Shown in pieces: positions 824-19,032 of a stretch of DNA of 64,000 nt; position 1 is the first letter of the stretch; every line of letters starts with the position of its first letter. This DNA comes from Methanobacteriota archaeon (GTDB taxonomy: Archaea; Thermoplasmatota; SW-10-69-26; JACQPN01): the NCBI GenBank assembly GCA_016207515.1, contig JACQPN010000005.1, positions 12,810-76,809 on the forward strand, read 5' to 3'. The position numbers and the translations under genes are program-made. A model generated the notes under the pieces. That model worked only from the letters and a program-made list of their open reading frames with translations. It was not told the origin of the DNA and did not search any database.

Positions 824-861
824 ATACCATTACCGGTATGCAAGGCGCGCCTTCAGGCCTG

Positions 862-872
862 TACTATAAAGC
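862..872 (+). promoter_or_regulatory. TATA-box-like element (tactataaagc) upstream of the PPase-like gene
   Basis: AT-rich box about 25 nt upstream of the in-frame ATG at 893. Consistent with an archaeal leaderless transcript. Confidence 0.35.
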
Positions 873-883
873 TTGGGGCAAGC

Positions 884-3049: not shown

Positions 3050-3059
3050 GTGCCAAGAA

Positions 3060-3719: not shown

Positions 3720-3723
3720 GGCG

Positions 3724-3903
3724 ATGAAGGCCTGCCGGGACTGCCATTTCATCACGGAAGGCGAATCGTGCCCGTCCTGCCGGGGGACGAACCTCAGCAA
3801 GGACTGGGCCGGATACGTCGTCGTCATCGATGCGAAACGCAGTGTGCTCGCCAAGAAGATGAACATCGACGCACCCGGAAAATACGCTCTCAAAGTAAGG
3901 TGA
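3724..3903 (+). CDS. spt4: transcription elongation factor Spt4 / RNAP subunit E''
   Basis: 60 aa zinc-ribbon protein MKACRDCHFITEGESCPSCRG (C4). Sits directly after rpoE as in most archaea. The track ORF 3568-3903 is over-extended 5' through an Arg-rich stretch. Confidence 0.8.
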   Translation: MKACRDCHFITEGESCPSCRGTNLSKDWAGYVVVIDAKRSVLAKKMNIDAPGKYALKVR

Positions 3904-3928
3904 ACACCTGTACCGACTCCCCGATGGG

Positions 3929-4411
3929 ATGCGTGACGAACTCACGAAGCCTCTCGGGCGCGTGTACACGACCGAGGAAGCGGTAGAGGCCGTCAAGAAG
4001 ACCGCGTGGCTCGTCGCCGTGGGCGACGTGACCACGGAGTCCTTCCTCGAAGGGGGCCTCGTGCCTCGCGTCATGGTCGTCGACTTCAAGACGAGGCGAA
4101 GCGGCGACATGGAGCGGCTCCGCGCCCGGCTCGCGGGGCTCCAAGCGACGACGGTGAAGGTGCAAAACCCCGCGGCCCGGATAACCGATGAGTTGTGGCA
4201 GGCGGTCGCCTCGTCGCTATCGGGAAACGGCCACACGGTGATCGAAGTCGACGGCGAGGAGGACCTCGCGGCCCTTCCCGCGCTGATGCTCGCGCCCAAC
4301 GGGACGGTCATCGCCTACGGGCAACCGGAGATGGGGGTCGTCCTCATCACGGTGGACGCGGCCGTGAGAGCGCGGGTGAGATCCATATTACAACGAATGG
4401 AAGTGGAATGA
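3929..4411 (+). CDS. DUF359 family protein (archaeal GTP-dependent dephospho-CoA kinase)
   Basis: About 160 aa with a VAVGDVTTESF motif. Sits in the conserved rpoE-spt4-DUF359-rps24e-rps27ae order. Its stop overlaps the rps24e start (ATGATGG). Confidence 0.65.
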   Translation: MRDELTKPLGRVYTTEEAVEAVKKTAWLVAVGDVTTESFLEGGLVPRVMVVDFKTRRSGDMERLRARLAGLQATTVKVQNPAARITDELWQAVASSLSGNGHTVIEVDGEEDLAALPALMLAPNGTVIAYGQPEMGVVLITVDAAVRARVRSILQRMEVE

Positions 4412-4758
4412 TGGAGATAGAGATACAGAACCAGAAGGAGAACGTGCTCTTGAACCGCAAGGAGGTGCACTTCGTGGTGAAACACGCGAAGGGCACGACT
4501 CCGAAGCGGGACGAGGTGCGCGAGAAGCTTGCAGGTCTCTTGAACACCAACAAGGCCAACGTCGTGGTCGACGAGATGGAAAGCGAGTTTGGGAAAGCAG
4601 AGACGGTCGGCTACGCCAAGGTCTACCCGAGCCCCAAGGCCGCAGCTGACCTCGAACGCCATTACCTGTTGAAGCGCAACAAGTTCGAAGGCCTGCCAGA
4701 GAAGAAGAAAGCAGCGGCGCCCGCGGCGGCGGCACCCGCGAAACCGGCGAGGAAGTGA
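4408..4758 (+). CDS. rps24e: 30S ribosomal protein S24e
   Basis: MMEIEIQNQKENVLLNRKEVHFVVKH...KVYPS is a typical S24e, with an Ala/Pro-rich tail. The track ORF 4195-4758 is over-extended 5'. Confidence 0.9.
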   Translation: MMEIEIQNQKENVLLNRKEVHFVVKHAKGTTPKRDEVREKLAGLLNTNKANVVVDEMESEFGKAETVGYAKVYPSPKAAADLERHYLLKRNKFEGLPEKKKAAAPAAAAPAKPARK

Positions 4759-4763
4759 GATAG

Positions 4764-4961
4764 ATGGCACCCCCACCGAAGAAAGGCCCTGCGACAAAGC
4801 AGATCCAGGGCGGAAAGGCCCAACTCTACAAGATAGAGGGGAACAAGCTCGTCCGGACGCGGAAATCCTGCCCCAAGTGCGGCCCCGGCGTGTTCCTGGC
4901 GGAGCACAAGGACCGCAATTCATGCGGGAACTGCGGCTACACCGAGTTCAAGAAACAATAG
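4764..4961 (+). CDS. rps27ae: 30S ribosomal protein S27ae
   Basis: 65 aa with a C4 zinc ribbon CPKCGPGVF...CGNCGY. Confidence 0.9.
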
Positions 4962-4992
4962 ACCAGCATATCTGGGCCCGCTTCGGCGGGCC

Positions 4993-5005
4993 TCCTTTTT
5001 TCCTT
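4993..5005 (+). terminator. oligo-T tract (cctccttttttcc) after the ribosomal protein operon
   Basis: T7 run immediately 3' of the rps27ae stop. Archaeal intrinsic terminators are U-tracts. Confidence 0.4.
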
Positions 5006-5084
5006 CGAGTCTCACTTCCCAGCGGACGCTTACGGGCTCGGCGTTGTCGTCACCTCTAAGAGCCCGTCGCGCTTCGAAGGACCC

Positions 5085-5975
5085 GTGCGCATTGAACGGA
5101 ACGGCATCGTTCTCATCGTCGTCTCCGCGGTGTCTTTCGGTGGCGTCGCCGTCTTGAGCAAACTCGTGCTCGAAGGTGGCCTCGACGTCCTGTGCCTTCT
5201 ATTCTGGCGCTGGCTCATCGCGGGGCTAGCGGTGGCGCCCTTGGTCTTGTTCGGCAGGGGAAAGAAGCTACGGCGCCGCACGATCGCGTATGCGTTTGCG
5301 CTTGGCGCCGTCGGGCAGTACGGCACATCGGGCGTGTACACGGAGTCACTTCGTTATCTTCCGGCGGCCATCGCGAGTTTCCTCCTTTTCCTGAGTCCCG
5401 TCTTCGTCGCGGCCTTCTCCGCGATACTTTTCGGCGAGACTTTGACGCGGCGTGGCTTGGCGGCTCTCGCGCTCTCGGTCTTGGGGCTCGCCTTGATGGC
5501 GTTCGCCCCGGGAGGCGAAGCGCCCATCGTGGGGGTCGTTTTGGGCCTTGCCTCCGCGCTCCTTTACGCGTCCACCATCGTCGCCGGGCGCAGGATAATC
5601 GGATCCGGGGACGGCCTTTCGGTGGCCTGGTTTCTCATGCTCGGGGCGACCACCATGTTCGCGGCGACCGCCCTGGCAAGCGGTGGCCTACACGGCCCAA
5701 CGAGCGCAAGCGTCTGGTCCGAGCTCGTGGTGCTCGGTGTGGTCAGCACGGCCTTGAGCATCGGGACCTTCTACGTGGGGCTCCCCCTCGTCGGCGCCCC
5801 GAAGGCGGCGCTTGTGAGCACCCTTGAGCCCGTGAGCACGCTGATCCTCGCATTCCTCGTCCTTGGGGAGAACCTCACGATCGCCCAATACGCGGGCGCC
5901 GGCCTCATCTTGGCCGCCGTCGCGATCGTAGCGACTGAGAAGAAAGGCGCTCCACCCGGGCCGCCGATCCCTTAA
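5085..5975 (+). CDS. EamA/DMT-family transporter
   Basis: Ten predicted TM helices in two 5-TM halves. Gly/Ala-rich and hydrophobic throughout, typical of EamA. Confidence 0.65.
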   Translation: MRIERNGIVLIVVSAVSFGGVAVLSKLVLEGGLDVLCLLFWRWLIAGLAVAPLVLFGRGKKLRRRTIAYAFALGAVGQYGTSGVYTESLRYLPAAIASFLLFLSPVFVAAFSAILFGETLTRRGLAALALSVLGLALMAFAPGGEAPIVGVVLGLASALLYASTIVAGRRIIGSGDGLSVAWFLMLGATTMFAATALASGGLHGPTSASVWSELVVLGVVSTALSIGTFYVGLPLVGAPKAALVSTLEPVSTLILAFLVLGENLTIAQYAGAGLILAAVAIVATEKKGAPPGPPIP

Positions 5976-5987
5976 GGCGGAGTCCCC

Positions 5988-6884
5988 TCACGTCCTACGC
6001 GGTCGCGAGGCGCCCGAGCCTGTCTCCTTGATGAACGTCCCCTCGCGGTACTCCTCGAGCGCCGTCTCGATCTCCCGCTTCGTGTTCATGACGATGGGAC
6101 CCCACCAAGCGACCGGCTCGCCCAAGGGTTTTCCAGAGACCAGGAGGAAACGTGTCGGCCTCGGTCTTGCCGTCGCGCGAACGGTGTCTCCTGCTCCGAG
6201 GATCGCCAAGTGCTCTTGCGGGACGACGGACTCCTTGCCTTCGCCAAAATCGACGCTTCCTTCTAGAACGTAAGCAAGCGTTGTGTGACTCTTCGGGATC
6301 GCGTGTTCGAACGTCGCGCCAGGTCCGAGGGTCACGTCAAGATACGAGGGGTCCACGACGATGTCCCGGACCGGCCCCTTGACGCCCGCCAACTCGCCGG
6401 CGATCACTCGCGCCCTCTTCTCGGGCGTCGCGATGATGGGGATCTCGGGCGCCTTGATCTCCTGATAACGCGGCGGCATCATCTTCTTTCGCGCCGGAAG
6501 GTTCACCCACAATTGGAACCCGCCCATGCCGGTGCCAGAGGCCGGTCTTGGCATCTCCTGATGGACAATGCCGCTACCCGCCGTCATCCATTGGACGTCG
6601 CCCGCGCCGATCGTGCCCTTGTTCCCCATACTGTCCTCGTGATCCACCCGACCGTCGAGCATGTACGTCACCGTCTCCATCCCGCGGTGGGGATGCCACG
6701 GGAACCCCGCGACGTAATCGAGGGGGTTTTGCGAGCGGAAATCGTCGAGGAGAAGGAATGGGTCGAGACGAGGGACCTGGTCGTGGCCGAAGGCGCGCTT
6801 GAGGCGGACACCGGCGCCTTCGATTGCGGCGCGAGCGGGGAGGATCTCAGCGACGGGGCGGGTCGGTTTCTTCGCAGCGGCCAT
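5988..6884 (-). CDS. pirin-family protein (bicupin, quercetin 2,3-dioxygenase-like)
   Basis: HPHRGMETVTYMLDG...GDVQWMTAGSGIVHQE cupin metal-binding motifs, and a second cupin domain. Confidence 0.9.
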   Translation of the reverse strand: MAAAKKPTRPVAEILPARAAIEGAGVRLKRAFGHDQVPRLDPFLLLDDFRSQNPLDYVAGFPWHPHRGMETVTYMLDGRVDHEDSMGNKGTIGAGDVQWMTAGSGIVHQEMPRPASGTGMGGFQLWVNLPARKKMMPPRYQEIKAPEIPIIATPEKRARVIAGELAGVKGPVRDIVVDPSYLDVTLGPGATFEHAIPKSHTTLAYVLEGSVDFGEGKESVVPQEHLAILGAGDTVRATARPRPTRFLLVSGKPLGEPVAWWGPIVMNTKREIETALEEYREGTFIKETGSGASRPRRT

Positions 6885-7083
6885 AACAATAGGGATTCGG
6901 CGGACACGGTATATAGAGGCTGAGTTACTGGAAGGGTGGGGGCGCGCCGAGGACCGGAGCGGAACCCAAGGTTCTGCTAGGCCGACGGGAGCCCCGAGCT
7001 CCCCTACGGAGGCCAGAAGTCTCCAACGTTACGTGGCCGCGGCCATGCGTGCGCTCGAACTCTGCAAGATTCCTGATAGTGAG

Positions 7084-7117
7084 CGCGCCCGTCGAGATTA
7101 TCGCGTGGATTTGCCGG
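7084..7117. repeat. att-like repeat copy A (cgcgcccgtcgagattatcgcgtggatttgccgg)
   Basis: Its first 16 nt match the reverse complement of the tRNA-Arg 3' end (14294-14309) with one mismatch. It has 2 mismatches to copy C and 3 to copy B over 34 nt. Confidence 0.6.
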
Positions 7118-7261
7118 CATGGACATCCGGACTCTGATGGCGGGTTGGGGTGCAGCGGTGGCGTCGCCCGGAAATTCACTTTGCTTGGTCCGCGCCCCTG
7201 GTCGGCGCTCGCCAATTGCGCGATTCCGAGACTGTTCGTGGAAGGGTTTTCCGCCTTAAGG

Positions 7262-7280
7262 CGTATTCTTTATATATTAT
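7262..7280 (+). promoter_or_regulatory. TATA box (tctttatatattattacg) for the AbiEi/AbiEii-like operon 1
   Basis: Strongly AT-rich box ending about 20 nt before the track start at 7299, in an otherwise 65% GC context. Confidence 0.45.
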
Positions 7281-7298
7281 TACGTCCTAAGACGTATT

Positions 7299-7922
7299 AT
7301 GGCTGGACGCTCGCGCGGGTTCATTCACTACTGCGAGCGCCTCTTCCTGGAAACGGATGCGCCCGTCCGATCGACCCGTCTCTGGCACGAACCCGGCACC
7401 ACAGCGTCGACGGTGCACCAATGGATCCGCCACTTGCGGTTCCACCGAGTCATGACCCCTGTGGACGGCGGCCATCGGATCGATCGCGTGAGGCTCTTGC
7501 AAGTGCTCGCGGCCCATCGCATCGCCCGCATCCAGCCCGTACATGAAGGCGCGGTTGCCTTGGATGCTCGCGGCTTCTCTCAGGTCTTGAGCCAACGACG
7601 CATTCCGCACGCGCTCTGCATGCTGTCCGCCGCGAACGAGTGGACATTCTTTGAGCCGCGCTATGCAATCGACGTCTACGTCCGACGGGCCGATGCCCCG
7701 CGCGTGAGAGCCCTCACAACGGTAGGCCGCTACCGCGTGAACCTCTACGCCGAGAATCTCGGCGAGGTCCCGACGCGGGAGAGAGATGGCGTCCCCATCA
7801 CCGACCTCTTCCAGACGCTCATTGATTGCCGGGCTCACCCCGAGGGTGGAGCACATGCGCAGTTCCTGGAACGAGTTTTGTTAGACAGGGCGAAGGTGAC
7901 GCATGGGGCGGCGGCCAGGTGA
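7299..7922 (+). CDS. AbiEi-like transcriptional regulator / antitoxin (wHTH + C-terminal AbiEi-type domain)
   Basis: N-terminal wHTH-like segment (TASTVHQWIRHLRFHRV). C-terminal motif GVPITDLFQTLIDC resembles the conserved ...ERTLLDL.. block of AbiEi/COG5340. It overlaps the downstream nucleotidyltransferase gene by 20 nt. Confidence 0.5.
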   Translation: MAGRSRGFIHYCERLFLETDAPVRSTRLWHEPGTTASTVHQWIRHLRFHRVMTPVDGGHRIDRVRLLQVLAAHRIARIQPVHEGAVALDARGFSQVLSQRRIPHALCMLSAANEWTFFEPRYAIDVYVRRADAPRVRALTTVGRYRVNLYAENLGEVPTRERDGVPITDLFQTLIDCRAHPEGGAHAQFLERVLLDRAKVTHGAAAR

Positions 7923-8688
7923 TGCGCACCGCGAGCTCGTGGACCCCCGGGCGTACGAGGTCGTCCGCCTCGTGATATCGCGCCTCGAGGAATGGGAGAC
8001 GGAGTACGTCCTCGGCGGTGGTTGGGCCGTGTACGCCTATGGGTCCCGTGTGCCGAGTGCGGATACAGACGTCTTCTTTCCCGACGCTACTGGGCATGTC
8101 GTAGTCGAGCGGCTGGCTTCCGAGACAGGCATCACGACGGGGCAAGGCGCGCAGTTGGAGGCATTGAGCCTCGACGGCTTCAATTCCATTCTTGGACAGG
8201 ACCCGGATTTCGGGGAACCAGACCTCGGTTACGTTCCACGAGGCCTGCTTGCCGGGCGCGTCCTTCGACGAAAGTTGGTCCTTGAGACAGAGACCGTTCA
8301 AGCCCGCGTGCCAACGGCTTCCGCATTGGCTTTCATGAAATTGAAGTCGTTCCACGACCGCGACATGGCGTGGCAAGCACTACGCGACCCGCTCGTCATG
8401 TCGGGGCTCCACCCGAGTGAACGCGGTATCGTCAGGGCGAAAGCGGAGTCCTACTACTATCGGAAGGCGGGCAAGGATCTCTATGACATCGCCTTCCTTT
8501 GCTCGGCCGCGTGCAAGCTGTCGGACTCTCTCGAAATCTCGGCAGAATTCGGGCTTCGCGAAGCTCTCCGGGCGCCGCTTGAAAACGTGGCCCCACAGCT
8601 GATGAATTTCGCGCTCGACCTGGCCGGAGGCGACCGGGCCACCGAGACGCTGCTACGAGATCTGGAGAACGAGCTGCCCAAATCATGA
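7903..8688 (+). CDS. AbiEii-like nucleotidyltransferase (type IV TA / abortive-infection toxin family, DUF1814-like)
   Basis: Pol-beta-fold signature GGGWAVYAYGSRVPSADTDVFF (hG[GS]x9-13DhD). The later block MKLKSFHDRD is shared with the paralog at 9756-10580. Confidence 0.6.
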   Translation: MGRRPGDAHRELVDPRAYEVVRLVISRLEEWETEYVLGGGWAVYAYGSRVPSADTDVFFPDATGHVVVERLASETGITTGQGAQLEALSLDGFNSILGQDPDFGEPDLGYVPRGLLAGRVLRRKLVLETETVQARVPTASALAFMKLKSFHDRDMAWQALRDPLVMSGLHPSERGIVRAKAESYYYRKAGKDLYDIAFLCSAACKLSDSLEISAEFGLREALRAPLENVAPQLMNFALDLAGGDRATETLLRDLENELPKS

Positions 8689-8794
8689 AAAAGAGCGAGC
8701 TACGGGCAAGTCCGAGTTCGACCAGGTTTTGCGCGGAATTCGGATTGATTCACGGGTTTCCCTCATGAAAAATATTATCCGTACTACTTTATGA

Positions 8795-8828
8795 CGCGCC
8801 CGCCGAGATTATCGCTTGGATTTGCCCG
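8795..8828. repeat. att-like repeat copy B (cgcgcccgccgagattatcgcttggatttgcccg)
   Basis: 16/16 identity to the tRNA-Arg 3' end, plus an 18-nt arm shared with copies A and C. Similarity to copy C extends to about 62 nt (8767-8832 vs 9665-9730), including an AT-rich gaaaaatattatc left arm. Confidence 0.65.
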
Positions 8829-8883
8829 TAACGCCACGACAAAGACGATAGGCCGCGTCCCTTTCATGATCGCGGTTCGGAAC

Positions 8884-9201
8884 CTAACGACGACCCTTTC
8901 GGTCGCTCCTGCCCGAGCCCGCCGGAATCGGATTCCGGATACGATCAATATCCGCCACAAGGACCTCCCTTACGACCGCGTGGTCCGTGTTCAACTTGAA
9001 CAGCCTAGACCGACCCAGTACCCTGGTTTCCACGACCAAGCCCTGGGCCAAGAGTTCCGACAGGTCCGCGTAGATCGTGGGTCTCGATATTCCCGTCGCT
9101 TCCGCGAGTTCTGTGATCGGGTAGTCCATGCTCGGGTGGTCTCCCAGAAAGTCGAGGAGCCTGTTCCGCGGACTCTCCCCGAACATCTCTGCAAAACCCA
9201 T
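8884..9201 (-). CDS. winged-helix transcriptional regulator
   Basis: ITELAEATGISRPTIYADLSELLAQGLVVE is a classic wHTH recognition helix and wing. 105 aa. Confidence 0.6.
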   Translation of the reverse strand: MGFAEMFGESPRNRLLDFLGDHPSMDYPITELAEATGISRPTIYADLSELLAQGLVVETRVLGRSRLFKLNTDHAVVREVLVADIDRIRNPIPAGSGRSDRKGRR

Positions 9202-9262
9202 ATTACATCAACGTAAAGCACTGTATACGTCAAACTATTTAGATGTACGCCCTTGTCCCGTC

Positions 9263-9541
9263 GTGCGAAGGCTCGATGCGCGAGAGGCCGCCATCTGTTT
9301 CAAACTCTACCGACACGGCCGCGTCGGCGCCGGCCACATCCTCATTGACAACCTGGTGAAGGGCTTCCCCAGTCATGAATTGGGCGAAATCCGAGACTCC
9401 GTGGAGAAACTCATCCGGGATGGCGTTCTGGTGCCAAAAAGCACAGCCCATGGGAAGGCGGTCTACGTCAACACCCGACTCCGGCTCGACGTCTACGACA
9501 GGATACGCGAGCACAAGGATTTCGCGTGGCTGCCGAAATGA
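9263..9541 (+). CDS. possible small wHTH-like protein (start uncertain, GTG at 9263)
   Basis: C-terminal part of track ORF 9128-9541. EIRDSVEKLIRDGVLVPK resembles a wHTH wing. The 5' part of the track ORF overlaps the minus-strand regulator, so a later GTG start is proposed. Confidence 0.25.
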   Translation: MRRLDAREAAICFKLYRHGRVGAGHILIDNLVKGFPSHELGEIRDSVEKLIRDGVLVPKSTAHGKAVYVNTRLRLDVYDRIREHKDFAWLPK

Positions 9542-9692
9542 TGCTGGCGCGGCGCAACGTCGGACATCGGATTCCGTCCCGCCGATGGATGCCGTGTTAC
9601 GGGCAAATCCAAGTTCGAACGCCTTTTCAGCCGAGGGCGTAATGTGTTTCCGCGCTTCTTCTTGGAAAAATATTATCACGTTTAGTTTATAA

Positions 9693-9726
9693 CGCGCCCG
9701 CCGAGATTATCGCTTGGATTTGCCGG
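9693..9726. repeat. att-like repeat copy C (cgcgcccgccgagattatcgcttggatttgccgg)
   Basis: 16/16 identity to the tRNA-Arg 3' end, plus the shared 18-nt arm. See copy B. Confidence 0.65.
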
Positions 9727-9755
9727 TAAACCAAGTGCGTCGTTCCATCGGTTGT

Positions 9756-10580
9756 TTACTGTTTTGGCGCTAAGGCCAGTGGAGCGACGACGGCCCGATA
9801 GTCGTTGAGGGAAACGTCCAGATGACCAAGAGCCTTTGTCAAGTATTGGCTGCCGAGGACGGTCCGGACCCTGGTCGAGGCGTCGGGTAAGAGCCGGTGC
9901 ACGGCCTTTCGCATGGCGAGCGCGTCGGAGCCTCCGTGGGCGGCAAGGGCAAACAGATCGCAAAGGTCCTTCACCGCTTTGTCGTCCTTGGTCCGGTCGG
10001 GGAAACTGTGGAGTTTGGTGGCGACGAGGAGCGGCGTGGAGGGAAGGCACACGCTTGGCGCAAAGCCGGAGGCCCGCGGGTCGGGATCCTCCTCGGTGAA
10101 GGCCGTGGCAAGAAGGGGCTCGTCGATTGGGTCGAAACCGAGAATCTTGCGAGAGAGTGGGTGCCTCGCGGTGACCATCGGGTCCACGTAGAGCAGATGG
10201 TAGTGCACGTCCTCGATGCCCACCTTGGGCTCGACGCCCAAGGCCTCCCCCTGTTCATCCAACACCAGCCGGAAACGGAAAGCGCCCGAAGGCTCGAACC
10301 CCAGTTCGCGCAGGCGGTGCGGGGCCTTTGCCGCCGCACTTTTTGAGAACACGTCGGAGGACCACAGCGGGTCCACGAAATAGGCGAGATCGATGTCCCG
10401 GCTTCCGAAGTATTCCTGACCAAACGCGTTCTGCCACCCGTCTCTTACACGTAGGCGGACGGCGTGACCCCCGGCTAGCGCGACCGGGGTGGGGAGATCG
10501 TTCACGAGGGCGCTCAGGCGTCTTTCGCTCTCCCTGGTCAGGAGATTATCGTACACGGGCGTTGGCGACATGGTGCTCAC
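9756..10580 (-). CDS. AbiEii-like nucleotidyltransferase, paralog 2
   Basis: LAGGHAVRLRVRDGWQNAFGQEYFGSRDIDLAYF NTase signature. The KLHSFPDRTKDDKAVKDL block parallels paralog 1. It overlaps its upstream partner by 35 nt. Confidence 0.6.
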   Translation of the reverse strand: MSTMSPTPVYDNLLTRESERRLSALVNDLPTPVALAGGHAVRLRVRDGWQNAFGQEYFGSRDIDLAYFVDPLWSSDVFSKSAAAKAPHRLRELGFEPSGAFRFRLVLDEQGEALGVEPKVGIEDVHYHLLYVDPMVTARHPLSRKILGFDPIDEPLLATAFTEEDPDPRASGFAPSVCLPSTPLLVATKLHSFPDRTKDDKAVKDLCDLFALAAHGGSDALAMRKAVHRLLPDASTRVRTVLGSQYLTKALGHLDVSLNDYRAVVAPLALAPKQ

Positions 10581-11310
10581 GTTCGATCAGGAGTTCGGCG
10601 GCCTCGGCGGCGCTGCCGCCTTCCTGGAGGAGATCAACTATTACTTGCGGCAGCGGGGCGACGGGAATCTCTTTCCCGCCGACCTTTCGGACGCTGCGCT
10701 CGTCACGGACTAGGCTGTACGGGGCCGGGATCAGGCGGAAGTTCGAGCCACCGAGTTGTCCGCCCGCCTCTTCGAGGATGAGGCGTCTGGCTCGAAACAC
10801 GAAACCTCCATCCTCGACGAGGCTTGCTGCCTGGTAGTCGAGGTCGGCGGGTATGTACACATCCATGCGTCGCGGAAAGAGGTGGCCTGCGTACGCGTTC
10901 TCGGCGTAGTACGTGGTGGCCATGGCGGTAAGCGACACGAGGTCTTCTCCATCGTACATGTGGAGCGGCACTGGCGCTTTATCCAACAAGAGGAGCGCCT
11001 TTACGGGATCCGGCACGAAGAAGCCGAACCCGCGGGCCGGTTTTCTATGGTCCGCCCACCACCGATATGTTGCGGGCGCGTCGATGACGGTGATCGGCGG
11101 ACCGAGATCGATGAGACGCGCTGACGCGAGCTCATGGGTGATCTGGTGGGCCCACGAATAGGCGGTCTTCGCCGTCATGGCGAGCGCGTTGACGGAACGA
11201 AGGGCTTCCCTGGAGTAGCGAGGTAACGAGAGTGATCGGCCCGCGGCGCCTAGCAGGTGGCGCATCACGGTGTCGCGGGCTGGACTAGACCACTTATCTG
11301 CATTTGACAC
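10546..11310 (-). CDS. AbiEi-like regulator/antitoxin, paralog 2
   Basis: N-terminal HTH-like region. C-terminal IPVAPLPQVIVDLLQEGGSAAEAAELL matches the AbiEi C-terminal ..ERTLLDL.. type block. Confidence 0.5.
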   Translation of the reverse strand: MSNADKWSSPARDTVMRHLLGAAGRSLSLPRYSREALRSVNALAMTAKTAYSWAHQITHELASARLIDLGPPITVIDAPATYRWWADHRKPARGFGFFVPDPVKALLLLDKAPVPLHMYDGEDLVSLTAMATTYYAENAYAGHLFPRRMDVYIPADLDYQAASLVEDGGFVFRARRLILEEAGGQLGGSNFRLIPAPYSLVRDERSVRKVGGKEIPVAPLPQVIVDLLQEGGSAAEAAELLIEREHHVANARVR

Positions 11311-11315
11311 AGTTC

Positions 11316-11345
11316 ATCTACTCCACAGATATCCGTGATTCCTTA
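11316..11345 (-). promoter_or_regulatory. TATA box (TTTAAATATAA on minus strand) for the AbiEi/AbiEii-like operon 2
   Basis: AT-rich patch 11300-11390. The box lies about 30 nt upstream of the start at 11310. Confidence 0.4.
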
Positions 11346-11348
11346 TAT

Positions 11349-11912
11349 TTAAATACTTTGCAGATAACTACGCTTGGGCTTGGTCGAGACTTCAAAACAG
11401 AGGCTGCCCCGCGCGCACCATCGGCAGGTTGCGCCGGCCGGCGGTGGCGGGTCGAGGGCCAGGACATGGGCAACGTCGTCGAGGAAGGGCATGAACGCTT
11501 CGTCGTCCCTCTTCATCTCCACCCACGTTAGCGACCCGTCCAAGGACGCCTTGCCCTCCGCGTTGGCGTCGAATGTCGCCGGCGAGAAGCACAGCAGCCC
11601 CATGCGCTTCACGGGCGCGGCCGCGAACTGCCTCGCCGCCGGCTTCTCGAGCGCAATCGCGTAGGCGTGCAATTGCCGCGCGTAGAGCGCGATGTGTGCG
11701 TCCTTCGGGTCCGTGGTCTTGAAGTCGATGACGCAGTAGGTCCCGTCGTCGAACTTGATCAGGGTGTCGAAGATGCCTCTCAGGACTATCCCGCGCGACT
11801 CGCCGATGATTATCGGTTGGCTCTCCACCCACTGCCCCGCATGGGCGAACCGTCCGGGCGGCAGCCCCAGCCCAAGGTCGTCCGTCCGCGTCCCCATGAA
11901 ACGCGCCTTCAT
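11349..11912 (-). CDS. Cas4/RecB-like PD-(D/E)XK nuclease with Fe-S cysteine cluster
   Basis: Motifs GIFDTLIKFDDG (D), CVIDFKT (D-x-K) and YARQLHAY (QhxxY). C-terminal C-x2-C-x5-C (CRWCARGSLC) is as in Cas4/AddB nuclease domains. No N-terminal Cys is visible, and the in-frame upstream extension has no usable start. Confidence 0.55.
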   Translation of the reverse strand: MKARFMGTRTDDLGLGLPPGRFAHAGQWVESQPIIIGESRGIVLRGIFDTLIKFDDGTYCVIDFKTTDPKDAHIALYARQLHAYAIALEKPAARQFAAAPVKRMGLLCFSPATFDANAEGKASLDGSLTWVEMKRDDEAFMPFLDDVAHVLALDPPPPAGATCRWCARGSLCFEVSTKPKRSYLQSI

Positions 11913-12166
11913 CGCAGCGCTGGCGGAACCTTGGGTTCCGCCGCGCCGTGCGCAAGCCCGGCTTGCGCGACGGCATCGATGGTCGTGAAGATCTTGGGGA
12001 AGGGCGATGGCGGGCGACGGATCCCCTGGACCACTTTGAGGTAGAAGCAGCGCTTACACTCTTCCCAGAGGAAGGCGATATCCAGAGCCCGTAAAGAACG
12101 CGTCGGCGCCAGCGCCGTCGGTCCATCGTGTGTCTTTGCCAAAAAGAATTTTGTTGCCGGCGGAAA

Positions 12167-14146
12167 TCATACTACGGGCAATCCTACGTCTTGCAGGTAC
12201 CCAAAGGTCGGATCGTAGAATTCCGGCTTTCTCGTGGCGTCCGCCGCGTCCCCTTCTGGGACAACAATAATCATCCCTTGCCGGGCACGCGTCATGAGTA
12301 CGCGGTAGGCGTTCTTCAGATAGAGTTTTCTTTCGGGTGACTTGATCCGTTTCCACTGATCGCCATGAAACGACCAATGATCCCAACCCTTCTCATGGTA
12401 TCGTAAGTCCGCGTCCCATGCAACGCACGTCCAATCGAGTTCTAATCCCTGAACATGAAATTCCGTGGCTACGTCCTCCAAGTAGTACGAGGACCGGACG
12501 TCCTCTTTTCCATCTAAAAACCAATGCACGGGATCGACCGGCGATCGAACGTGGATGGCATGCGGTTTCAACCGCTCGGCTTGCGAAGAGACAACTATTC
12601 CGTACCGCTCCGACCCTCGGGCCTTCTCTTTCAGCCATGACTTGGCCGTACCCAAGCTCCGGGTCAATACAATCGGATAGCGGTCGGCTTGCCGAATCGA
12701 ACGCCGGGCGCCATCCAAATCGACGTCCAAGATCTGCTTCACGAGCAGTGAAACGTTCTCCGCTCGAAACGAACGCATCGACGTGGCAAGGTGGAGCTCC
12801 GACTTCATCGTCACGTTCGGTCGCGGGCCAAGTGAATCGATCGCTCGTCCCGCCGCATATTCGGTGTCATGTAAGCGCGGCGAAATGAAAATGCCCCAAT
12901 CGGGGTAAGATCGATTAAGTGATTCAATCCATTCGCTTATCCCGGCCTCGCCCGTGTTTATTTCTTGGCCTCCGCCTACGAGACAAATCACGACTGCCCA
13001 ATCCGGGTGCCGATCGAGGCACGAGATGAGGAATTCCGGCTCTGACATGGAAAACCCCGGACGCTGCTTCTTGCGACTCATGAACGCAGCTGTTTGCTTC
13101 CGGTTCCACGCACGCTGGGCTTCATCGAAGATTGCGACGCGCTCGATCGGGGGCCCGTCGTCCTTCAGGCATTCATCCCGGAAATTGTGGATATTTTGAA
13201 TGAACGCCTTAACGCGGCTCCGCGTTTCCCCGAGTCGGACCGAGTGCCCGGCCTCGTCCGACCGTCGCTTCTGGTCACGGGCAAGCGCTTCGCGCAGTAT
13301 CTTGACGAGTGGGCCGTTTCCGGACAGATATACTGCATGCAATTCGCTCTTGGCATCCATGTGCTCGGTCGCAACATTGAGTCCGACGAGCGTCTTGCCC
13401 GCGCCGGGGACGCCTGTGACAAAACAAATCACCTTGCGCGATTCCCCCCGGGCGGAATCTATTATTTCGGACAGAAGATGCGATGTCGCGGAAAGATTCA
13501 CCGCGCCGCCGTCGCTTCTCGCGATTTCGGTTACAGAGTGATTCCCGTAAAGCGCACACGCCGCCTCGATGATTGTTGGGGTCGGCCGATACCGACCGGA
13601 CGTCCATGCCCGCCGGTCTATTCGCAGACCCGGCGCCCGGGCCAGGATTTGACGCATGGTGGGTCCGAATGTCCGGAGGTTTGCGCGAATCGGGTCGAAC
13701 AGACCGTCGTTCAACCTTTCGGAAAGAACAGGCGACTCGGGGTCGCTCGCGCCTGTCGCGATCAGGACCGGTACAATGAAGGCGTGATGGCTGGCCTCAT
13801 GGAAATTCTTGAGGTCTAGCGCATAATCCCAAACTTGTTCAATGGCATGGCGAGGAAACGTCTTCTCGCCAACCTTGAATTCCAGAACGAGGATCACAGA
13901 GTCGAGAACCAGCACAACGTCAATCCGACGGCCCATCCTGGGAATCACGTACTCGAAAAAGATGGCACCATCCATGTTCCCGAGTGCCGCCTGAAGAAAA
14001 CCCACCTCTTCACGCCATGCGGCAAGCTGCGCTTCCGTTGGTGGAAGGCCGACTTGGCTTGCCTCAGCGGCCAGACGGTCGAGGATTGCGCTCCCATCGG
14101 CCTTGGAGAAGTCCGTGATTTCGCTGGAGTAAAAAGCCCGGTCCAT
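12167..14146 (-). CDS. DUF2075-type protein: N-terminal PD-(D/E)XK (Mrr/NERD-like) nuclease + P-loop ATPase + SF1-helicase-like C-terminal domain
   Basis: Nuclease motif [21 protein letters not shown]. Walker [11 protein letters not shown] and Walker [10 protein letters not shown]-terminal [15 protein letters not shown] resembles the UvrD-type helicase motif VI region. Confidence 0.7.
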
Positions 14147-14293
14147 CCGTCCCGTCGAAGGGTGGCAGCCGATATGAAGGCTGGGATCGACGCGATGACG
14201 CGGAGGAACGTCCGGTCATGCTTGCGTCGCCTGGACCCCGTAATACCGAGATCCATGATCGGGCGAGGCGGGTGGCGTCGCAATTGCTCTTAG

Positions 14294-14367
14294 CGCGCCC
14301 GCCGAGATTCGAACTCGGGTCCTGAGGTCCGGAACCTCATGTCCTATCCAAGCTAGACTACGGGCGC
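14294..14367 (-). tRNA. tRNA-Arg (anticodon CCG), 74 nt, no encoded CCA, no intron
   Basis: Manual cloverleaf: acceptor GCGCCCG/CGGGCGC, D-stem GTCT/GGAC, anticodon stem TGAGG/CCTCA with loop TTCCGGA, T-arm CCGAG-TTCGAAT-CTCGG, discriminator G. TATA (GTTATATC) lies about 29 nt upstream. Confidence 0.8.
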
Positions 14368-14392
14368 AGTAAGGGGGCGGATTCCGTACCTC

Positions 14393-14403
14393 GATATAAC
14401 GTT
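14393..14403 (-). promoter_or_regulatory. TATA box of tRNA-Arg
   Basis: gatataacg on the forward strand (GTTATATC on minus), centred about 29 nt upstream of tRNA position 1. Confidence 0.5.
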
Positions 14404-14535
14404 GCCCTTGCTTTTCAGAACGGCTGGCCGGAGTTTTTCCGTGCACCCTAGCGGAACCTTCAGTTCCGCTGGGGCTAGGGAAGCTTCGCTTCCCTGCGCC
14501 GCTTTTTGCCGCTTGACGGCAAAAAGGGTGCTGTG

Positions 14536-14560
14536 CCTATCCAAGCTAGACTACGGGCGC
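14536..14560 (-). repeat. duplicated 25-nt tRNA-Arg 5' segment (positions 1-25: acceptor 5' strand + D-arm)
   Basis: 100% identical to 14343-14367. A promoter-like duplicate, about 80% identical to the tRNA TATA region, lies at 14657-14700 but is separated from the fragment by about 95 nt of hairpin-rich sequence. Confidence 0.6.
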
Positions 14561-14775
14561 CTGAAGCGGAGCGAAGCTCCGCGAAGCCCCGGGGACGAGG
14601 CCCGAAGGGCCGAGTCCACGAGGGCACGCGGGTTCGCCCTCAGGCGAAGCCGCGTGTAAGGGCCGGATTCCCTGCCCAGATATAACGGTGTCCCTGCGGT
14701 TCGAGATGGTTGGCAGATTCCTCCGGGGATGCGACCAATGGAGGTGACGTCGTTAGATGCTGGCGAGCGTTATTG

Positions 14776-15549
14776 TTACCCGCCCACCGAGTGCACCCTG
14801 AATGCTCCGGCCACGGTGTATTCGACGCTCAATGGCGCCACCCCTTCGTTCTCCCACAGCAGGCTGAAAATGTCCCGCCTCATGGCAGTGAACGTCCCCT
14901 CCCCTTCATGGGCGGTCTTTTCCACGTGGTTGGTGGTCACGCCGTCCTTGTGGCTGTGGACGTTGAAGTATATCATTCCGTCCGCCTCGACTACTTTCCA
15001 CTTGTAGGTGAGGGTCGCGTTTTCTTCCATTACGAGGTTGGCTTCGAGGAATTGCCTCGCCGCGATTGATTTGGTGTCCTTCAGTTCGGCGGTTGTGACC
15101 ACTTCACGCGTGAGAGTGATCGCGACCGTGTATGCCTCGTCGACTGCCCGTTGGGTGCGGACGATTATCTTCCATTTGCCCGGTAGTGGCGGCTCGACGG
15201 TCGCCACCGAGCTCTTCGTGTCGCTCTCTGGAAAGCCTGATCCCTGGTTCTTTCCCGAGGGGTCGAGCAGTGAGAAAGAGAGCGCGGATGCCGCCGATGC
15301 CCATGTGAGGTCGGCTTTGATGTCGACGACGCGCGCCTCGACGTCGAATTCGTGGATCTTCTCGCCGGGCGCGACGGGCGTTCCTGCGAGTCGGTCCGTG
15401 AAGGTGGTCTTGATCGGCGCCAATGGCTCGCTTGAGGTAGTCGGTGGCGTGGTCCCCGCCGCCGGGTCGTCATTTTGCTGGGTCACGCATCCCGAGAGAA
15501 GCATGAGGGCCAACGCAAGGTATGCAAGAGGGCTCCGATGGGCCGCCAT
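14776..15549 (-). CDS. secreted lipoprotein, unknown function
   Basis: Start re-assigned to MAAHRSPLAYLALALMLLSGC (signal peptide plus LSGC lipobox-like site). Thr/Ser-rich linker, then a beta-rich domain. Confidence 0.5.
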   Translation of the reverse strand: MAAHRSPLAYLALALMLLSGCVTQQNDDPAAGTTPPTTSSEPLAPIKTTFTDRLAGTPVAPGEKIHEFDVEARVVDIKADLTWASAASALSFSLLDPSGKNQGSGFPESDTKSSVATVEPPLPGKWKIIVRTQRAVDEAYTVAITLTREVVTTAELKDTKSIAARQFLEANLVMEENATLTYKWKVVEADGMIYFNVHSHKDGVTTNHVEKTAHEGEGTFTAMRRDIFSLLWENEGVAPLSVEYTVAGAFRVHSVGG

Positions 15550-15656
15550 CGTTTGGTCCAGCACAGGAAGTCGCCTTAAACCTTCTTGTGGGGGACGGTC
15601 GCGGGACCCGCCCATGGCGCCTAAAGTGTAAAGCGGGGTTAGCCGTTGGCAGGTCG

Positions 15657-17150
15657 ATGCCGCCGAAACAGACTGCCCGTAGCCTTCTCGAAAAGGGCTT
15701 GAAGCCGAAGACCCCAGGCGAGATGCTACGCGAGACCATCCTGACTTCACTCAGCAAGCTTCACTCCGACGGGTTCTCCCGCGAAGAGTCGATGCAAGCG
15801 CTCTTCCCGAACACGATACTCGATTCTGACGTCCTGGAGACCGTGACGTCGGCGCTCCTTTCCGGGAACAATTTTCTCGTCATCGGGCCCCCCGGTAGCG
15901 GGAAGACGACACTTGCGAAGGACGTGTGGCAACTATATCCCAAAGAAGGTGTCGCGGTGGAGACCTGCCCCGTGCAAGATGACCCGTTCTCGCTGGTGGA
16001 CGAGAAGTTCTCGAAGACGGCCCCCCCATGCCCCTACTGCAAGACGAGGTACGGTGGCGTTTCACTCCAAGAACTCGGCGAATTCGACCCGAAGGCGGTG
16101 AAACCGGACGAGGTGCCCGTGAAGCGGCTGCACTTGAGAGAGGGTTATGGTTTCGCGCGGGTCCAGGGCTCACCCGAGGTGTTCCCGGACAATCTCACCG
16201 GTTCTATCAACCTCTCGAAATTGGAAGAGTTGGGCGACCCCACGTCGCCCTTGGTGTTGGAGCCTGGGAAACTTTTGCAGGCAAACAGGGGCGTTCTCCT
16301 CATCGACGAGATCGGGAAGTTACCGAGGGGGACGCAAAACGTCCTTCTACAAGCACTCCAAGAACGGATCGTGACGCCGGCGAAATCAAGGGAAACGTTC
16401 CCGGCGAGTTTCATCGCCGTCACTACGTCCAACCTCGACGACCTCGACAACATCAGCGAGCCGTTGAACGATCGCCTCGTGAATCTCCAGGTTCCCTTCA
16501 ACAAGGACCATTCGAAGAACATGCGGATCGTTGAAGTGGCGTTCAGCGCGCAAAACGCCGTGAAGATCCCATGGGTGTTTCGCGAGGCGAGTGTGCACCT
16601 CATCGAGGAGTGGCGTAAGACCAGCCAAGGCCTCCCGGAACTCTACGAGGTGGGAAGCAACAGGAGCATGATCGACGTCCTACGCCGTTCCGAATCGTTT
16701 GCCGTCCTCGCCGGAAGCAGCGCTTTGAGGGCCGAGGACTTCGGCCGCGGGATAAAGGAGGCGATGCGGGGCCGCATCAGGGCACGCGGCTCAGACAGCC
16801 TCGACGAATCGCGTTCCATCGTCGACCAGTTCGTCGAGAAGACCTGGCGACGCTCGTTGGAGCGTTCCTGCGTCACCCACTGGTGCCTGTTCTTCGAGGG
16901 CGAGTTGAAGAAGGACCGGGCGGAGGCGGAGAGGGTGTTGAAGGAGGTGCGAAGTGTAGTCACCATGGACGCAGAAAAACAGGTGGAGGCGCTACGAGAC
17001 CACAGCCCGCACACGCGCTACAAGCGGTTCGCCGACCACGTGGGGCGCATGGAGCGCGCCACAAAGGCTGACGTCCCGGGAAACGTCGCAGGCACCATAG
17101 CGCTCTTCGACGAACTCAAGGTCTTTGACAAGGACCCGGCGAAGATCTGA
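15657..17150 (+). CDS. AAA+ ATPase, Mg-chelatase ChlI/MoxR-like, with C4 zinc-ribbon insertion
   Basis: Walker A FLVIGPPGSGKTTLAKD. Inserted CPVQDD...CPYCKTRYGG. Walker B / sensor region GVLLIDEIGKLPRGTQNVLLQALQERIVTPAKSRETFPASFIAVTTSNLDDLD is ChlI-like. Start re-assigned to the Met at 15657 (MPPKQTARSLLEKG). Confidence 0.75.
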   Translation: MPPKQTARSLLEKGLKPKTPGEMLRETILTSLSKLHSDGFSREESMQALFPNTILDSDVLETVTSALLSGNNFLVIGPPGSGKTTLAKDVWQLYPKEGVAVETCPVQDDPFSLVDEKFSKTAPPCPYCKTRYGGVSLQELGEFDPKAVKPDEVPVKRLHLREGYGFARVQGSPEVFPDNLTGSINLSKLEELGDPTSPLVLEPGKLLQANRGVLLIDEIGKLPRGTQNVLLQALQERIVTPAKSRETFPASFIAVTTSNLDDLDNISEPLNDRLVNLQVPFNKDHSKNMRIVEVAFSAQNAVKIPWVFREASVHLIEEWRKTSQGLPELYEVGSNRSMIDVLRRSESFAVLAGSSALRAEDFGRGIKEAMRGRIRARGSDSLDESRSIVDQFVEKTWRRSLERSCVTHWCLFFEGELKKDRAEAERVLKEVRSVVTMDAEKQVEALRDHSPHTRYKRFADHVGRMERATKADVPGNVAGTIALFDELKVFDKDPAKI

Positions 17151-19032
17151 GGGCCATGATGCGAAGGCGAGTTCTCGCTGGGGGTTGACGGTCTTCTCCC
17201 ACATCCCCGATTGTCTTTCCTGGGAGGACGCCTTCCACCTCACGAGCGAAGAGAGATTGGAACTCGTAAGACGCCTTGCGGAAGAAGGCCCGGGTGCGAT
17301 CGACAGGTTCCTTGAGGAACGAAAGGAACAAGGCGGCCTGGGAGCGCATTTCGAGGACGTGAAGCGGCGTATGGAGGCGTTCGCCGCAGAAAGACGGCGC
17401 CGACTCCTCGAGGAGTTCGAGGAGAGGCGGAAAAGGGCGGAAGCGGAATCGGGCCAGAAACTCGTCACCGTGAGCGAGGCGAAGAAGTCGGCAGAAGAGC
17501 GGCTTCGAGAGCTTCTTGCCTCCCGGGACGCTGAATTGCGAGGCGCGCTACTTGGCGGAGACCTCGTCCGACTCACTTTGTCGGCAAGCCCAGGCGAAGA
17601 ACGGAAACGTGGTCCGATCGACGTGCTCCTCGGTTTCATTCTGGGAATTCTTGCCGCCATCGGACGCGTTTGGCGATCGTTCCTTTCGTTCCTAGGCCTA
17701 CGACGACGGGCACGGCGCACCACAATAGCAGCGTTTCGAGGCCTCGCGGGAACTTACGCCGAGATCGAGGGACGGGTCGGACTCGCGTTGCGATCAAGCG
17801 ACGATGTCCGGTCACTGGTGCGCCAACGAATGGGCCAACTCAGGGCGGGAGACCGGTTCTCTCTCTGGTGGCGTAAGCTCCTCGGCCTCGAAGACGACGA
17901 ATCCATCCTCCGCCGGTTCATCGAGGACGAGGTGGAGAAAGGCCTCACCGAGAAGGAACGCGAGATGATGCGGCAACGGGAGGAGTTGGAAAAGAACCTC
18001 GCGGGCCTCGATGAGCGGCGCCGTGCCGAGGAAGCCGAGACCCAAGGCGAGCTTGACCGCATCGAACGTGAACGCGAGGCGGCGATAAAGAGACTACGGG
18101 AACTCGCCTCGAACGCGCCCAGGGAGAGACTACGCCAAGAGGTCGTGGAGGACCTGCTCGCGTCGGGCCTCGTCCGGGAGACCGAAGGCAACATCACGAT
18201 CACGCACCGGCTCATCGACAGGTTCGCAGACCTCGTACTCGCAGCGGAGACGAAGTCCGCCAGGAGCGGCAAACGAAGCGGCTTCGGTCGGACGGCGGAG
18301 GGTGAAGGCGATTACGAGCGCTCGCCGCTTCTCTCGCGCGAAGACATGTCGAGGATGGACATAGCCGAATCCCTCGTTTCCGCGAGGTTGAACCACCCGC
18401 GCGTGAAGCACATGTTCGACGACGACGTCATCATCCACCGCGAGATACGCTCCGCCGTCACACACGCGGTCCTAGTCATGGACGCGAGCGCCAGCATGGA
18501 AGAGAACGGACGGATACTCGCGGCAAAAAGAGCGGTCCTGGCGCTCCACAGCGCCGTAAAACGATCGAACCCGCGTAACATCGTCGACGTCCTCGTGATG
18601 AGGACGGACGTGCGTAGGATCGACCTTCTCGAGGCGTGGAACCTCAAGCCACGGGGCTTCACGAACACGGGGAGGGCACTGAGGATGGCGTCGGACCTCT
18701 TGGAGCGGGAAGGCAAGGACAGGCAACTCCTCTACCTCGTGACCGACGGCCTCCCCGAGGCGCACACGGAGGGCGGCGAGGATCTTGCGGGCTTTCCCGA
18801 GAAAGCGATGCGCTCGGCGCTCGATTCATCGCGCCGACTCCGCTCTCTTCCGGGCGCCTACTTCGTCCAGGTGCTCTTGGAGGCCAAGGACCCCACGTAC
18901 GTCGAGGCGGCGGAATCCATAGCCTCACAAGGCAAGGGCCGTGTCCTTCGCGTCGACCCGGGCGACTTGGCCCAAAGGAGCCTCGCCGAATTCAGTCGTG
19001 CGACGAGGCAGTGGCAGGAAATACCGGCCTGA
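17125..19032 (+). CDS. von Willebrand factor A (vWA) domain protein with N-terminal coiled-coil and a single TM segment
   Basis: C-terminal vWA with MIDAS DASAS...T...D (HAVLVMDASASMEENGR...LLYLVTDGLPEAH). TM segment IDVLLGFILGILAAIGRVW. Long E/R-rich coiled coils. Overlaps the AAA+ gene by 26 nt. Confidence 0.75.
   Translation: MTRTRRRSEGHDAKASSRWGLTVFSHIPDCLSWEDAFHLTSEERLELVRRLAEEGPGAIDRFLEERKEQGGLGAHFEDVKRRMEAFAAERRRRLLEEFEERRKRAEAESGQKLVTVSEAKKSAEERLRELLASRDAELRGALLGGDLVRLTLSASPGEERKRGPIDVLLGFILGILAAIGRVWRSFLSFLGLRRRARRTTIAAFRGLAGTYAEIEGRVGLALRSSDDVRSLVRQRMGQLRAGDRFSLWWRKLLGLEDDESILRRFIEDEVEKGLTEKEREMMRQREELEKNLAGLDERRRAEEAETQGELDRIEREREAAIKRLRELASNAPRERLRQEVVEDLLASGLVRETEGNITITHRLIDRFADLVLAAETKSARSGKRSGFGRTAEGEGDYERSPLLSREDMSRMDIAESLVSARLNHPRVKHMFDDDVIIHREIRSAVTHAVLVMDASASMEENGRILAAKRAVLALHSAVKRSNPRNIVDVLVMRTDVRRIDLLEAWNLKPRGFTNTGRALRMASDLLEREGKDRQLLYLVTDGLPEAHTEGGEDLAGFPEKAMRSALDSSRRLRSLPGAYFVQVLLEAKDPTYVEAAESIASQGKGRVLRVDPGDLAQRSLAEFSRATRQWQEIPA

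Follow-up and report, generated by a model that had tools for sequence, protein, structure and literature searches.

An archaeal Nhi-like (DUF2075) nuclease-helicase gene and an interrupted Cas4/RecB-type nuclease gene, probably unrelated cargo of one tRNA-linked island

Nhi of Staphylococcus combines in one enzyme an N-terminal PD-(D/E)XK nuclease and a helicase region overlapping DUF2075, and has been proposed to sense and degrade phage replication intermediates (bioRxiv 10.1101/776245); a later review gives phage single-stranded DNA-binding protein (SSB) as its trigger and nicking plus unwinding as its action (PMC12904381). Nhi-like, a verified anti-phage protein, has the architecture of Nhi with no sequence identity to it, and protects as a single gene (Millman et al., 2022; 10.1101/2022.05.11.491447). 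Phage mutants that escape Nhi-like have lost a DNA methylase, suggesting that methylated DNA may be the trigger (10.1101/2022.08.27.505566). Here we analyze a related locus in a Methanobacteriota archaeon, within a 64,000 nucleotide (nt) stretch of contig JACQPN010000005.1 (assembly GCA_016207515.1), hereafter the window. An initial annotation, made from the sequence alone, had proposed that two adjacent genes form a module directed against mobile genetic elements (MGEs): one for a 659 amino acid (aa) nuclease-helicase of the Nhi type, the other for a 187 aa Cas4-like nuclease. Both open reading frames (ORFs) lie where they were placed, at 12167-14146 and 11349-11912 on the minus strand, with 254 nt between the ORF ends. 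However, we consider it likely that the locus is an acquired, tRNA-linked island that carries a stand-alone Nhi-like enzyme, and that the small nuclease gene, which is unrelated and interrupted, is co-cargo with no functional partnership. The features on which this view draws are collected in Table 1.

Table 1. Coordinates (window numbering) of the two nuclease genes, their domains and the features that delimit the island
Feature	Position	Strand	Basis or remark
Intact 659 aa Nhi-like (DUF2075 / PADLOC PDC-S41) nuclease-helicase gene	12167-14146	minus	ORF; NCBI MBI4392660.1
Predicted N-terminal PD-(D/E)XK nuclease core (residues ~1-135; E65, D76, E89-x-K91, Q104, Y108)	13742-14146	minus	alignment, model, Foldseek
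Predicted superfamily 1 (SF1)-type helicase/ATPase region (residues 238-630; Walker A GVPGAGKT, Walker B DEAQ)	12257-13435	minus	Pfam PF09848, alignment, Foldseek
N-terminal fragment, 77 aa, of disrupted Cas4/RecB-family PD-(D/E)XK gene	11909-12142	minus	frame differs from 187 aa ORF; three-frame translation, alignment
Frame-breaking insertion of 56 nt, two perfect GC-rich hairpins	11913-11968	minus	homologue alignment, folding
C-terminal fragment, the 187 aa ORF (D126, D140-x-K142, Q157xxxY161, C240, C243)	11349-11912	minus	annotated as NCBI MBI4392659.1
tRNA-Arg (CCG); 3' end is proximal island boundary	14293-14367	minus	ARAGORN; Rfam tRNA 59 bits
Direct repeat resembling an attachment site (att-like): 16 nt of tRNA-Arg 3' end plus common extension; distal end of 4.6 kb two-gene segment	9693-9727	plus	exact k-mer search, alignment
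Second att-like direct repeat	8795-8829	plus	exact k-mer search, alignment
Third att-like direct repeat, one mismatch in tRNA-derived core; outer island limit beside pirin gene	7084-7118	plus	
Overlapping pair: 254 aa protein and 274 aa AbiEii-like nucleotidyltransferase, toxin-antitoxin type	9756-11310	minus	Pfam AbiEii

Its sequence marks the 659 aa protein as a stand-alone enzyme of the Nhi-like type and a member of the PADLOC family PDC-S41. The initial annotation had relied on domain order, without a database match; in fact two profiles match strongly. PDC-S41 covers residues 1-657 (profile positions 1-651 of 657; E 8.9e-278, 921 bits), and PF09848 (SLFN-g3 helicase, formerly DUF2075) covers residues 238-630 (profile positions 1-353 of 354; E 7.6e-82, 275.8 bits against a gathering cutoff of 24). 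We see no sequence-level difference between the protein and PDC-S41, the family to which it belongs; the 'S' in that name presumably marks a single-gene candidate in PADLOC naming. Searches of PHROGs and NCBIfam and a direct sequence search of the PDB gave no match; only a profile search reached SLFN11 and SLFN5 among PDB sequences.

Of the two described proteins, Nhi-like is the one with which the archaeal protein can be aligned throughout. The comparison sequence, taken from the supplementary table of Millman et al. (2022), comprises the first 399 residues of the verified protein, and aligns collinearly with residues 6-402 (26% identity, E 3e-44). WP_087947895.1, encoded on a Bacillus cereus plasmid and 89% identical to the verified sequence, carries the alignment through residues 6-638 (27% identity, E 2e-64). 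The alignment with Nhi-like spans FEYxIxRxxxRxD...ExK, the Walker motifs, GxGQEI, QGLELD and TR-R-G. By these comparisons the 659 aa protein and Nhi-like (SG141, Bacillus cereus FSL H8-0482, IMG gene 2729017301) are genuinely, if distantly, homologous over their full length; Nhi-like is likewise a single polypeptide, in which an N-terminal PD-(D/E)XK nuclease precedes a DUF2075 helicase. The two differ in that the archaeal protein is about 50 aa longer and falls into a distinct and much more conserved subgroup, PDC-S41, which occurs mostly in Gram-negative bacteria and candidate phyla and is found here in an archaeon. Nhi proper (SERP2475, Staphylococcus epidermidis; Bari et al., 2022) has the same domain order and the same proposed logic, with sensing and effector roles united in one enzyme that needs its nuclease as well as its helicase activity, but no significant sequence match to the 659 aa protein outside the P-loop, the only part detected by the PADLOC Nhi profile (residues 227-266, E 0.0025, 14.5 bits).

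The residues expected of both predicted activities are preserved. Across an alignment of 42 diverse homologues (33-52% identity), E65, D76, E89, K91, Q104 and Y108 are invariant and make up a PD-(D/E)XK site with a RecB/Cas4-type QxxxY helix, so that no nuclease residue of the 659 aa protein is lost on alignment. The nuclease motif reported earlier is therefore present, in the form of D76 and E89-F-K91, with a spacing of D-x12-EFK and not x13. The Walker A/B ATPase was also correctly identified: G245, P247, G248, G250, K251 and T252 of Walker A (G245-VPGAGKT252) and D341, E342 and Q344 of Walker B (D341-EAQ344) are invariant in the same homologues. AlphaFold2 models of the whole protein (pLDDT 89.7, pTM 0.87) and of residues 1-237 (pLDDT 89.4) are confident, and the latter contains the alpha-beta-beta-beta-alpha-beta core. 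When the N-terminal model was compared with the PDB using Foldseek, at an E limit of 0.1, the matches were exclusively PD-(D/E)XK nucleases (McrC, Can2/Card1/Cdn1, VC1899, the Dna2 nuclease domain and restriction enzymes); their E-values were modest, 8e-4 at best. Invariant nuclease and Walker residues, together with confident models, support the prediction that the enzyme is catalytically competent. The Nhi-type reading of this gene thus holds, given the full-length PDC-S41 match, the invariant residues, the predicted PD-(D/E)XK fold and the collinear homology with Nhi-like.

For the whole 659 aa model the top Foldseek matches were SLFN11, SLFN14, RecD, Upf1 and Dna2. The group III Schlafen helicases (human SLFN11, SLFN5 and SLFN14) have PF09848 in common with the 659 aa protein and are its best PDB matches, but their N-terminal domain has the tRNA-cleaving Schlafen nuclease fold where the archaeal protein has a predicted PD-(D/E)XK nuclease, and the overall resemblance is low (TM-score ~0.3, identity ~12%).

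The family is large, with 4,866 cluster representatives at E <= 1e-3 and 1,081 at E <= 1e-30, and the archaeal protein is 58-68% identical to proteins from Bacteroidota, Planctomycetota, Proteobacteria, Chloroflexota, Acidobacteriota, Cyanobacteria and candidate phyla. The host itself is archaeal, as indicated by the NCBI contig label (Euryarchaeota), an Rpb7-like RNA polymerase subunit and an archaea-specific editing domain of threonyl-tRNA synthetase (ThrRS). Because all of the 80 best DUF2075 loci are bacterial, the protein can be called bacterial-type, and its gene is probably a bacterial import into this archaeon. Four homologues with 63-65% identity (P0130, P0153, P0186 and P0217) are longer, at 760-785 aa, and carry an extra NUDIX/MutT domain (PF00293, PF14815), a hint that some members of the DUF2075 family are connected with nucleotide hydrolysis.

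We surveyed the pairing of the two genes across genomes from both sides, using the best 80 of 481 confirmed loci of close DUF2075 relatives, with up to 6 kilobases (kb) of flank, and the best 87 loci of the small-nuclease family, 48 of which are at least 6 kb long. The two families never co-occurred in either direction. Neither tblastn nor a profile search of all ORFs found the small nuclease family in any of the 80 DUF2075 loci (0/80), with a profile that, as a positive control, recovers both fragments of the nuclease gene in the window; conversely, no DUF2075 protein was present in the small-nuclease loci (0/87). The nearest relatives of the large gene (68% identity) and of the small gene (52% identity) are also unpaired. 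Adjacency of helicase and nuclease is specific to the Methanobacteriota genome studied. A two-gene module is not supported, and the pair is not a new system.

Clustering of all flanking ORFs in the 80 DUF2075 loci revealed no conserved partner of any kind above 7/80. The only recurrent neighbour, in seven bacterial loci (for example L005, 7929-8969), is an HNH-type ORF of ~340 aa directly downstream on the same strand. On long contigs, homologues of the small nuclease lie beside Tn7-like TniB/TniQ genes or among metabolic genes. At one such locus (L081, 1-5687), an intact homologue directly follows a Mu-transposase-like gene, TniB and TniQ, in the manner of a transposon cargo or accessory gene.

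The smaller gene turned out not to be what its ORF suggests. The 187 aa ORF had been taken as a whole nuclease 254 bp downstream of the helicase gene; on alignment it proves to cover only the last two-thirds of a PD-(D/E)XK gene of ~227 aa, and the supposed gap is coding sequence. PF12705 (PDDEXK_1) matches the ORF with 37.6 bits (cutoff 22) over profile positions 112-246 of 247 only, a partial match because the gene is split. When the 77 aa and 187 aa ORFs were joined into a reconstructed protein of 264 aa, whose numbering we use for residues of the small nuclease, the query matched hundreds of ~227 aa proteins, which covered 84-92% of it. Alignment with 15 intact homologues of ~227 aa places the conserved N-terminus, SPSDFAFLWEECKRCFYLKVV...PKIFTxID, in the upstream frame given in Table 1. 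That 77 aa N-terminal fragment includes the conserved motif FLWEECKRCFYLK with C29 and C32, is matched by the nuclease-family alignment profile at E 3e-22, and has TTG as its only start codon. In the homologues ID-xx runs directly into MK; in the window, IDAV and MKARF are separated by an additional 56 nt. Since 56 is not a multiple of three, the small nuclease gene is broken. Its true start lies ~24 nt downstream of the stop of the large gene. The initial annotation had allowed that the Cas4-like ORF might prove to be a truncated pseudogene lacking conserved neighbours, and a fragment of a disrupted gene is indeed what we find; the gene is most likely a recent pseudogene.

The resemblance of this nuclease to Cas4 also needs qualification. 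The motifs first described for the small ORF, D-x-K, QhxxY and C-x2-C-x5-C, are present (D140-F-K142, Q157-LHA-Y161 and C240-x2-C243-x5-C249), but the third of these cysteines is not conserved in the family: the invariant cysteines are C29, C32, C240 and C243, which form a CX2C...CX2C pattern, and C249 is specific to the window. The 187 aa product alone would lack half of the metal site. Cas4, the Argonaute-associated ACE1 and MGME1 resemble the small nuclease in having a PD-(D/E)XK core with D...D-x-K, QhxxY and cysteines at both termini, and weak profile matches were obtained to ACE1 (9iab, E 0.003), Cas4 SSO0001 (4ic1, E 0.03) and MGME1. PADLOC Cas4 models match the window fragment weakly (E 2.5e-5 to 2e-3), as do Aga_Cas4-like models, and on an intact homologue (P0008) the Cas4 equivalog TIGR00372 scores 26.4 bits, below its cutoff of 65. 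Cas4 has its cysteines as C...CX2CX5C, unlike the CX2C...CX2C of the small-nuclease family, of which the window copy is in addition interrupted. No CRISPR array was found in the window, and no cas families among the scanned neighbours. Judged by profile and motif, the small nuclease family is Cas4/RecB-like only in a broad sense; it is a widespread family of its own, made up of stand-alone nucleases.

An alternative explanation is that the small gene is split yet alive, with the 77 aa and 187 aa fragments produced by termination and reinitiation at an overlapping ATGA and reassembling around the CX2C...CX2C cysteines into an active, independent nuclease. The frame of the N-terminal fragment stays open through the whole insertion, its stop codon, a TGA, shares bases with the ATG of the invariant Met78, both fragments keep almost all conserved residues, and the insertion is stable in two sequencing runs. 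However, the conserved Met-Lys codons (ATGAAR) produce the TGA/ATG overlap of themselves once the frame is shifted by one base, with no need for selection, the N-terminal fragment has neither an ATG nor a GVG start, only TTG, and none of the homologues listed is split at the same point. We consider this possibility unlikely.

The insertion itself is a compact structure, with two perfect inverted repeats of 9 base pairs (bp) and a predicted folding energy of -48.9 kcal/mol (z -3.2). An artefact in the assembly of the metagenome-assembled genome (MAG) is ruled out, as two independent Logan assemblies from different sequencing runs are 100% identical through the insert. An archaeal bulge-helix-bulge intron in the mRNA was also considered and rejected. 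In this GC-rich context a scan of both bulge geometries gave only weak candidates, obtained with rules relaxed to 2/3 bp for the flanking helices, and the sole candidate that would restore the frame removes 53 nt, against the 56 nt needed by homologue spacing, and clashes with the two hairpins. Nor is the insert an abundant repeat, since no second copy exists in the window at up to three mismatches; the only related sequences are two that resemble its second hairpin (RGCGGAACY-nnn-RGGTTCYGCY, with 3-4 mismatches), at 6958-6978 and 14450-14470. Both lie just beyond the two ends of the island, and each has another GC hairpin beside it. By a rough estimate, chance would produce 0.02-0.1 such matches per window, and the hairpin sequences may constitute a small palindromic repeat family.

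Both genes sit in a region with the apparent marks of repeated insertion at a tRNA gene. Upstream of the large gene, at a distance of 146 nt, is the tRNA-Arg, and the 16 nt at its 3' terminus occur in four direct copies, the original at 14294-14309, exact copies beginning at 9693 and 8795, and one with a single mismatch beginning at 7084. The three distal copies have in common a non-tRNA extension of ~18 nt (ATCGCTTGGATTTGCC...), two of them also match in an AT-rich stretch on the other side, and the Logan contig L168 terminates at the 9693-9727 repeat. The copies delimit three segments: 9709-14293 (4.6 kb), with the DUF2075 gene, the broken nuclease gene and the AbiEii-like pair of 254 and 274 aa; 8811-9692 (0.9 kb), with a winged-helix regulator; and 7100-8794 (1.7 kb), with a second AbiE-like pair. 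In the first pair, the 274 aa ORF matches Pfam AbiEii with 29.6 bits (cutoff 22.5), and PADLOC AbiEii weakly; its overlap with the 254 aa ORF is 35 nt, and this candidate AbiE partner had no family match in Pfam, PADLOC and NCBIfam scans. The GC content of the island is 0.57-0.58 as compared with 0.62-0.64 around it, and its flanks are housekeeping genes. An attP-like junction was sought in viruses, with no exact match in IMG/VR. We read the island as the product of successive, since decayed integrations at one tRNA, which would explain why two unrelated nuclease genes stand side by side.

A more far-reaching interpretation starts from the three segments, each of which ends in the ~35 nt tRNA-Arg-derived repeat, carries cargo of the defence or toxin-antitoxin kind and has no integrase. 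It would make the locus an integron-like archaeal defence array, accumulating cassettes through a remote recombinase, with the 56 nt double hairpin and the similar hairpins at both borders of the island as an undescribed small palindromic mobile element. We regard this as very unlikely.

On the reading that we prefer, that of an acquired island with a stand-alone Nhi-like enzyme, a small, horizontally acquired element would have settled at the 3' end of the tRNA-Arg, and nuclease and helicase would be adjacent as cargo of the same island segment. If the analogy with Nhi and the verified Nhi-like protein holds, a single polypeptide would act as both sensor and effector: the helicase motor would load onto invader DNA, and the nuclease domain would then nick or degrade that DNA. 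What is recognized may be a replication intermediate, in line with the proposal for Nhi, or methylated DNA, to which the Nhi-like escape mutants point.

Several points weigh against this reading. With an identity to Nhi-like of only 26-27%, the 659 aa protein could have a different trigger and substrate. We infer a defence role for the protein itself from sequence and analogy rather than from experiment, and PDC-S41 is a computational candidate for which we found neither a mention nor a published validation in the literature searched. Conservation within the family, at 58-68% identity across phyla, is unusual for a defence gene, and a repair-type role would also fit. With the two genes on the same strand and ~24 nt apart, their co-transcription is likely. 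Nearly all conserved residues of the small nuclease are retained, only S20 being changed, which leaves room for recent or residual function. Finally, no integrase families were detected in the scanned ORFs (74-19032), so that the case for a mobile island is built from the repeats and the GC content.

The module originally proposed, a functional unit in this lineage at least, must be weighed against this background. Its Cas4-like enzyme would act on DNA ends, processing them for the helicase or following its action. The genes are on one strand and nearly contiguous once the true N-terminus of the small one is recognized, and both are within one att-bounded island segment. Operons of a nuclease plus a nucleoside triphosphatase (NTPase) are common in defence (bioRxiv 10.1101/2025.07.10.664194), and a different nuclease, of the HNH type, directly follows the helicase gene in the 7/80 bacterial DUF2075 loci described above. 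A nuclease gene beside a helicase gene is also the arrangement of Hachiman HamAB and AbpAB, which resemble the module in concept; those systems, however, are strictly conserved operons whose helicase subunit has no nuclease of its own, whereas the 659 aa helicase carries a conserved one and its adjoining gene is not conserved. Zero co-occurrence in both surveys, with even the closest relatives unpaired, a Cas4-like gene cut by a frame-breaking insertion and the single-gene function of the verified Nhi-like protein also speak against a partnership, which we therefore find highly improbable. It is just as improbable that the 659 aa protein serves as a housekeeping nuclease-helicase of DNA repair or replication restart, in the way of Dna2 or RecD, for although its sequence is very highly conserved across phyla and its structural neighbours include RecD, Dna2 and Upf1, its gene is of bacterial type in an archaeon, lies in a low-GC, tRNA-linked island with toxin-antitoxin genes, has neighbourhoods that vary between genomes, and belongs to a defence-candidate family homologous to a verified anti-phage protein.

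The large gene adds an archaeal example to the very widespread Nhi-like/DUF2075 defence family, which links prokaryotic immunity with the helicase domain of animal Schlafen proteins. For the discovery of new systems the locus has little importance. Its useful outcome is a negative one: the apparent pairing would be island packing with one partner broken, and should not be catalogued as a two-gene system. PDC-S41 is so conserved, on the other hand, that what is learned from a single well-chosen representative would apply to thousands of genomes.

Some further features of the surroundings deserve mention. About 170 nt upstream of the tRNA-Arg, at 14536-14560, there is a 25 nt exact copy of its 5' half, in which neither ARAGORN nor Rfam recognizes a second tRNA; next to the copy comes a perfect 9 bp hairpin (TTTTTGCCG...CGGCAAAAA), and the copy is possibly the remnant of an older rearrangement. 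Beyond the tRNA, at 15522-19032, an AAA+ ATPase with MoxR/PrkA/sigma-54-like matches precedes a protein of 635 aa that has a vWA domain at its C-terminus; the two ORFs overlap by 26 nt in the manner of a MoxR-vWA-type pair, and have weak PADLOC matches to ATPase cores only. Two genes for H+-translocating pyrophosphatases, at 884-3049 and 23273-25312, occur within 22 kb, with Pfam scores of 439 and 849 bits, respectively.

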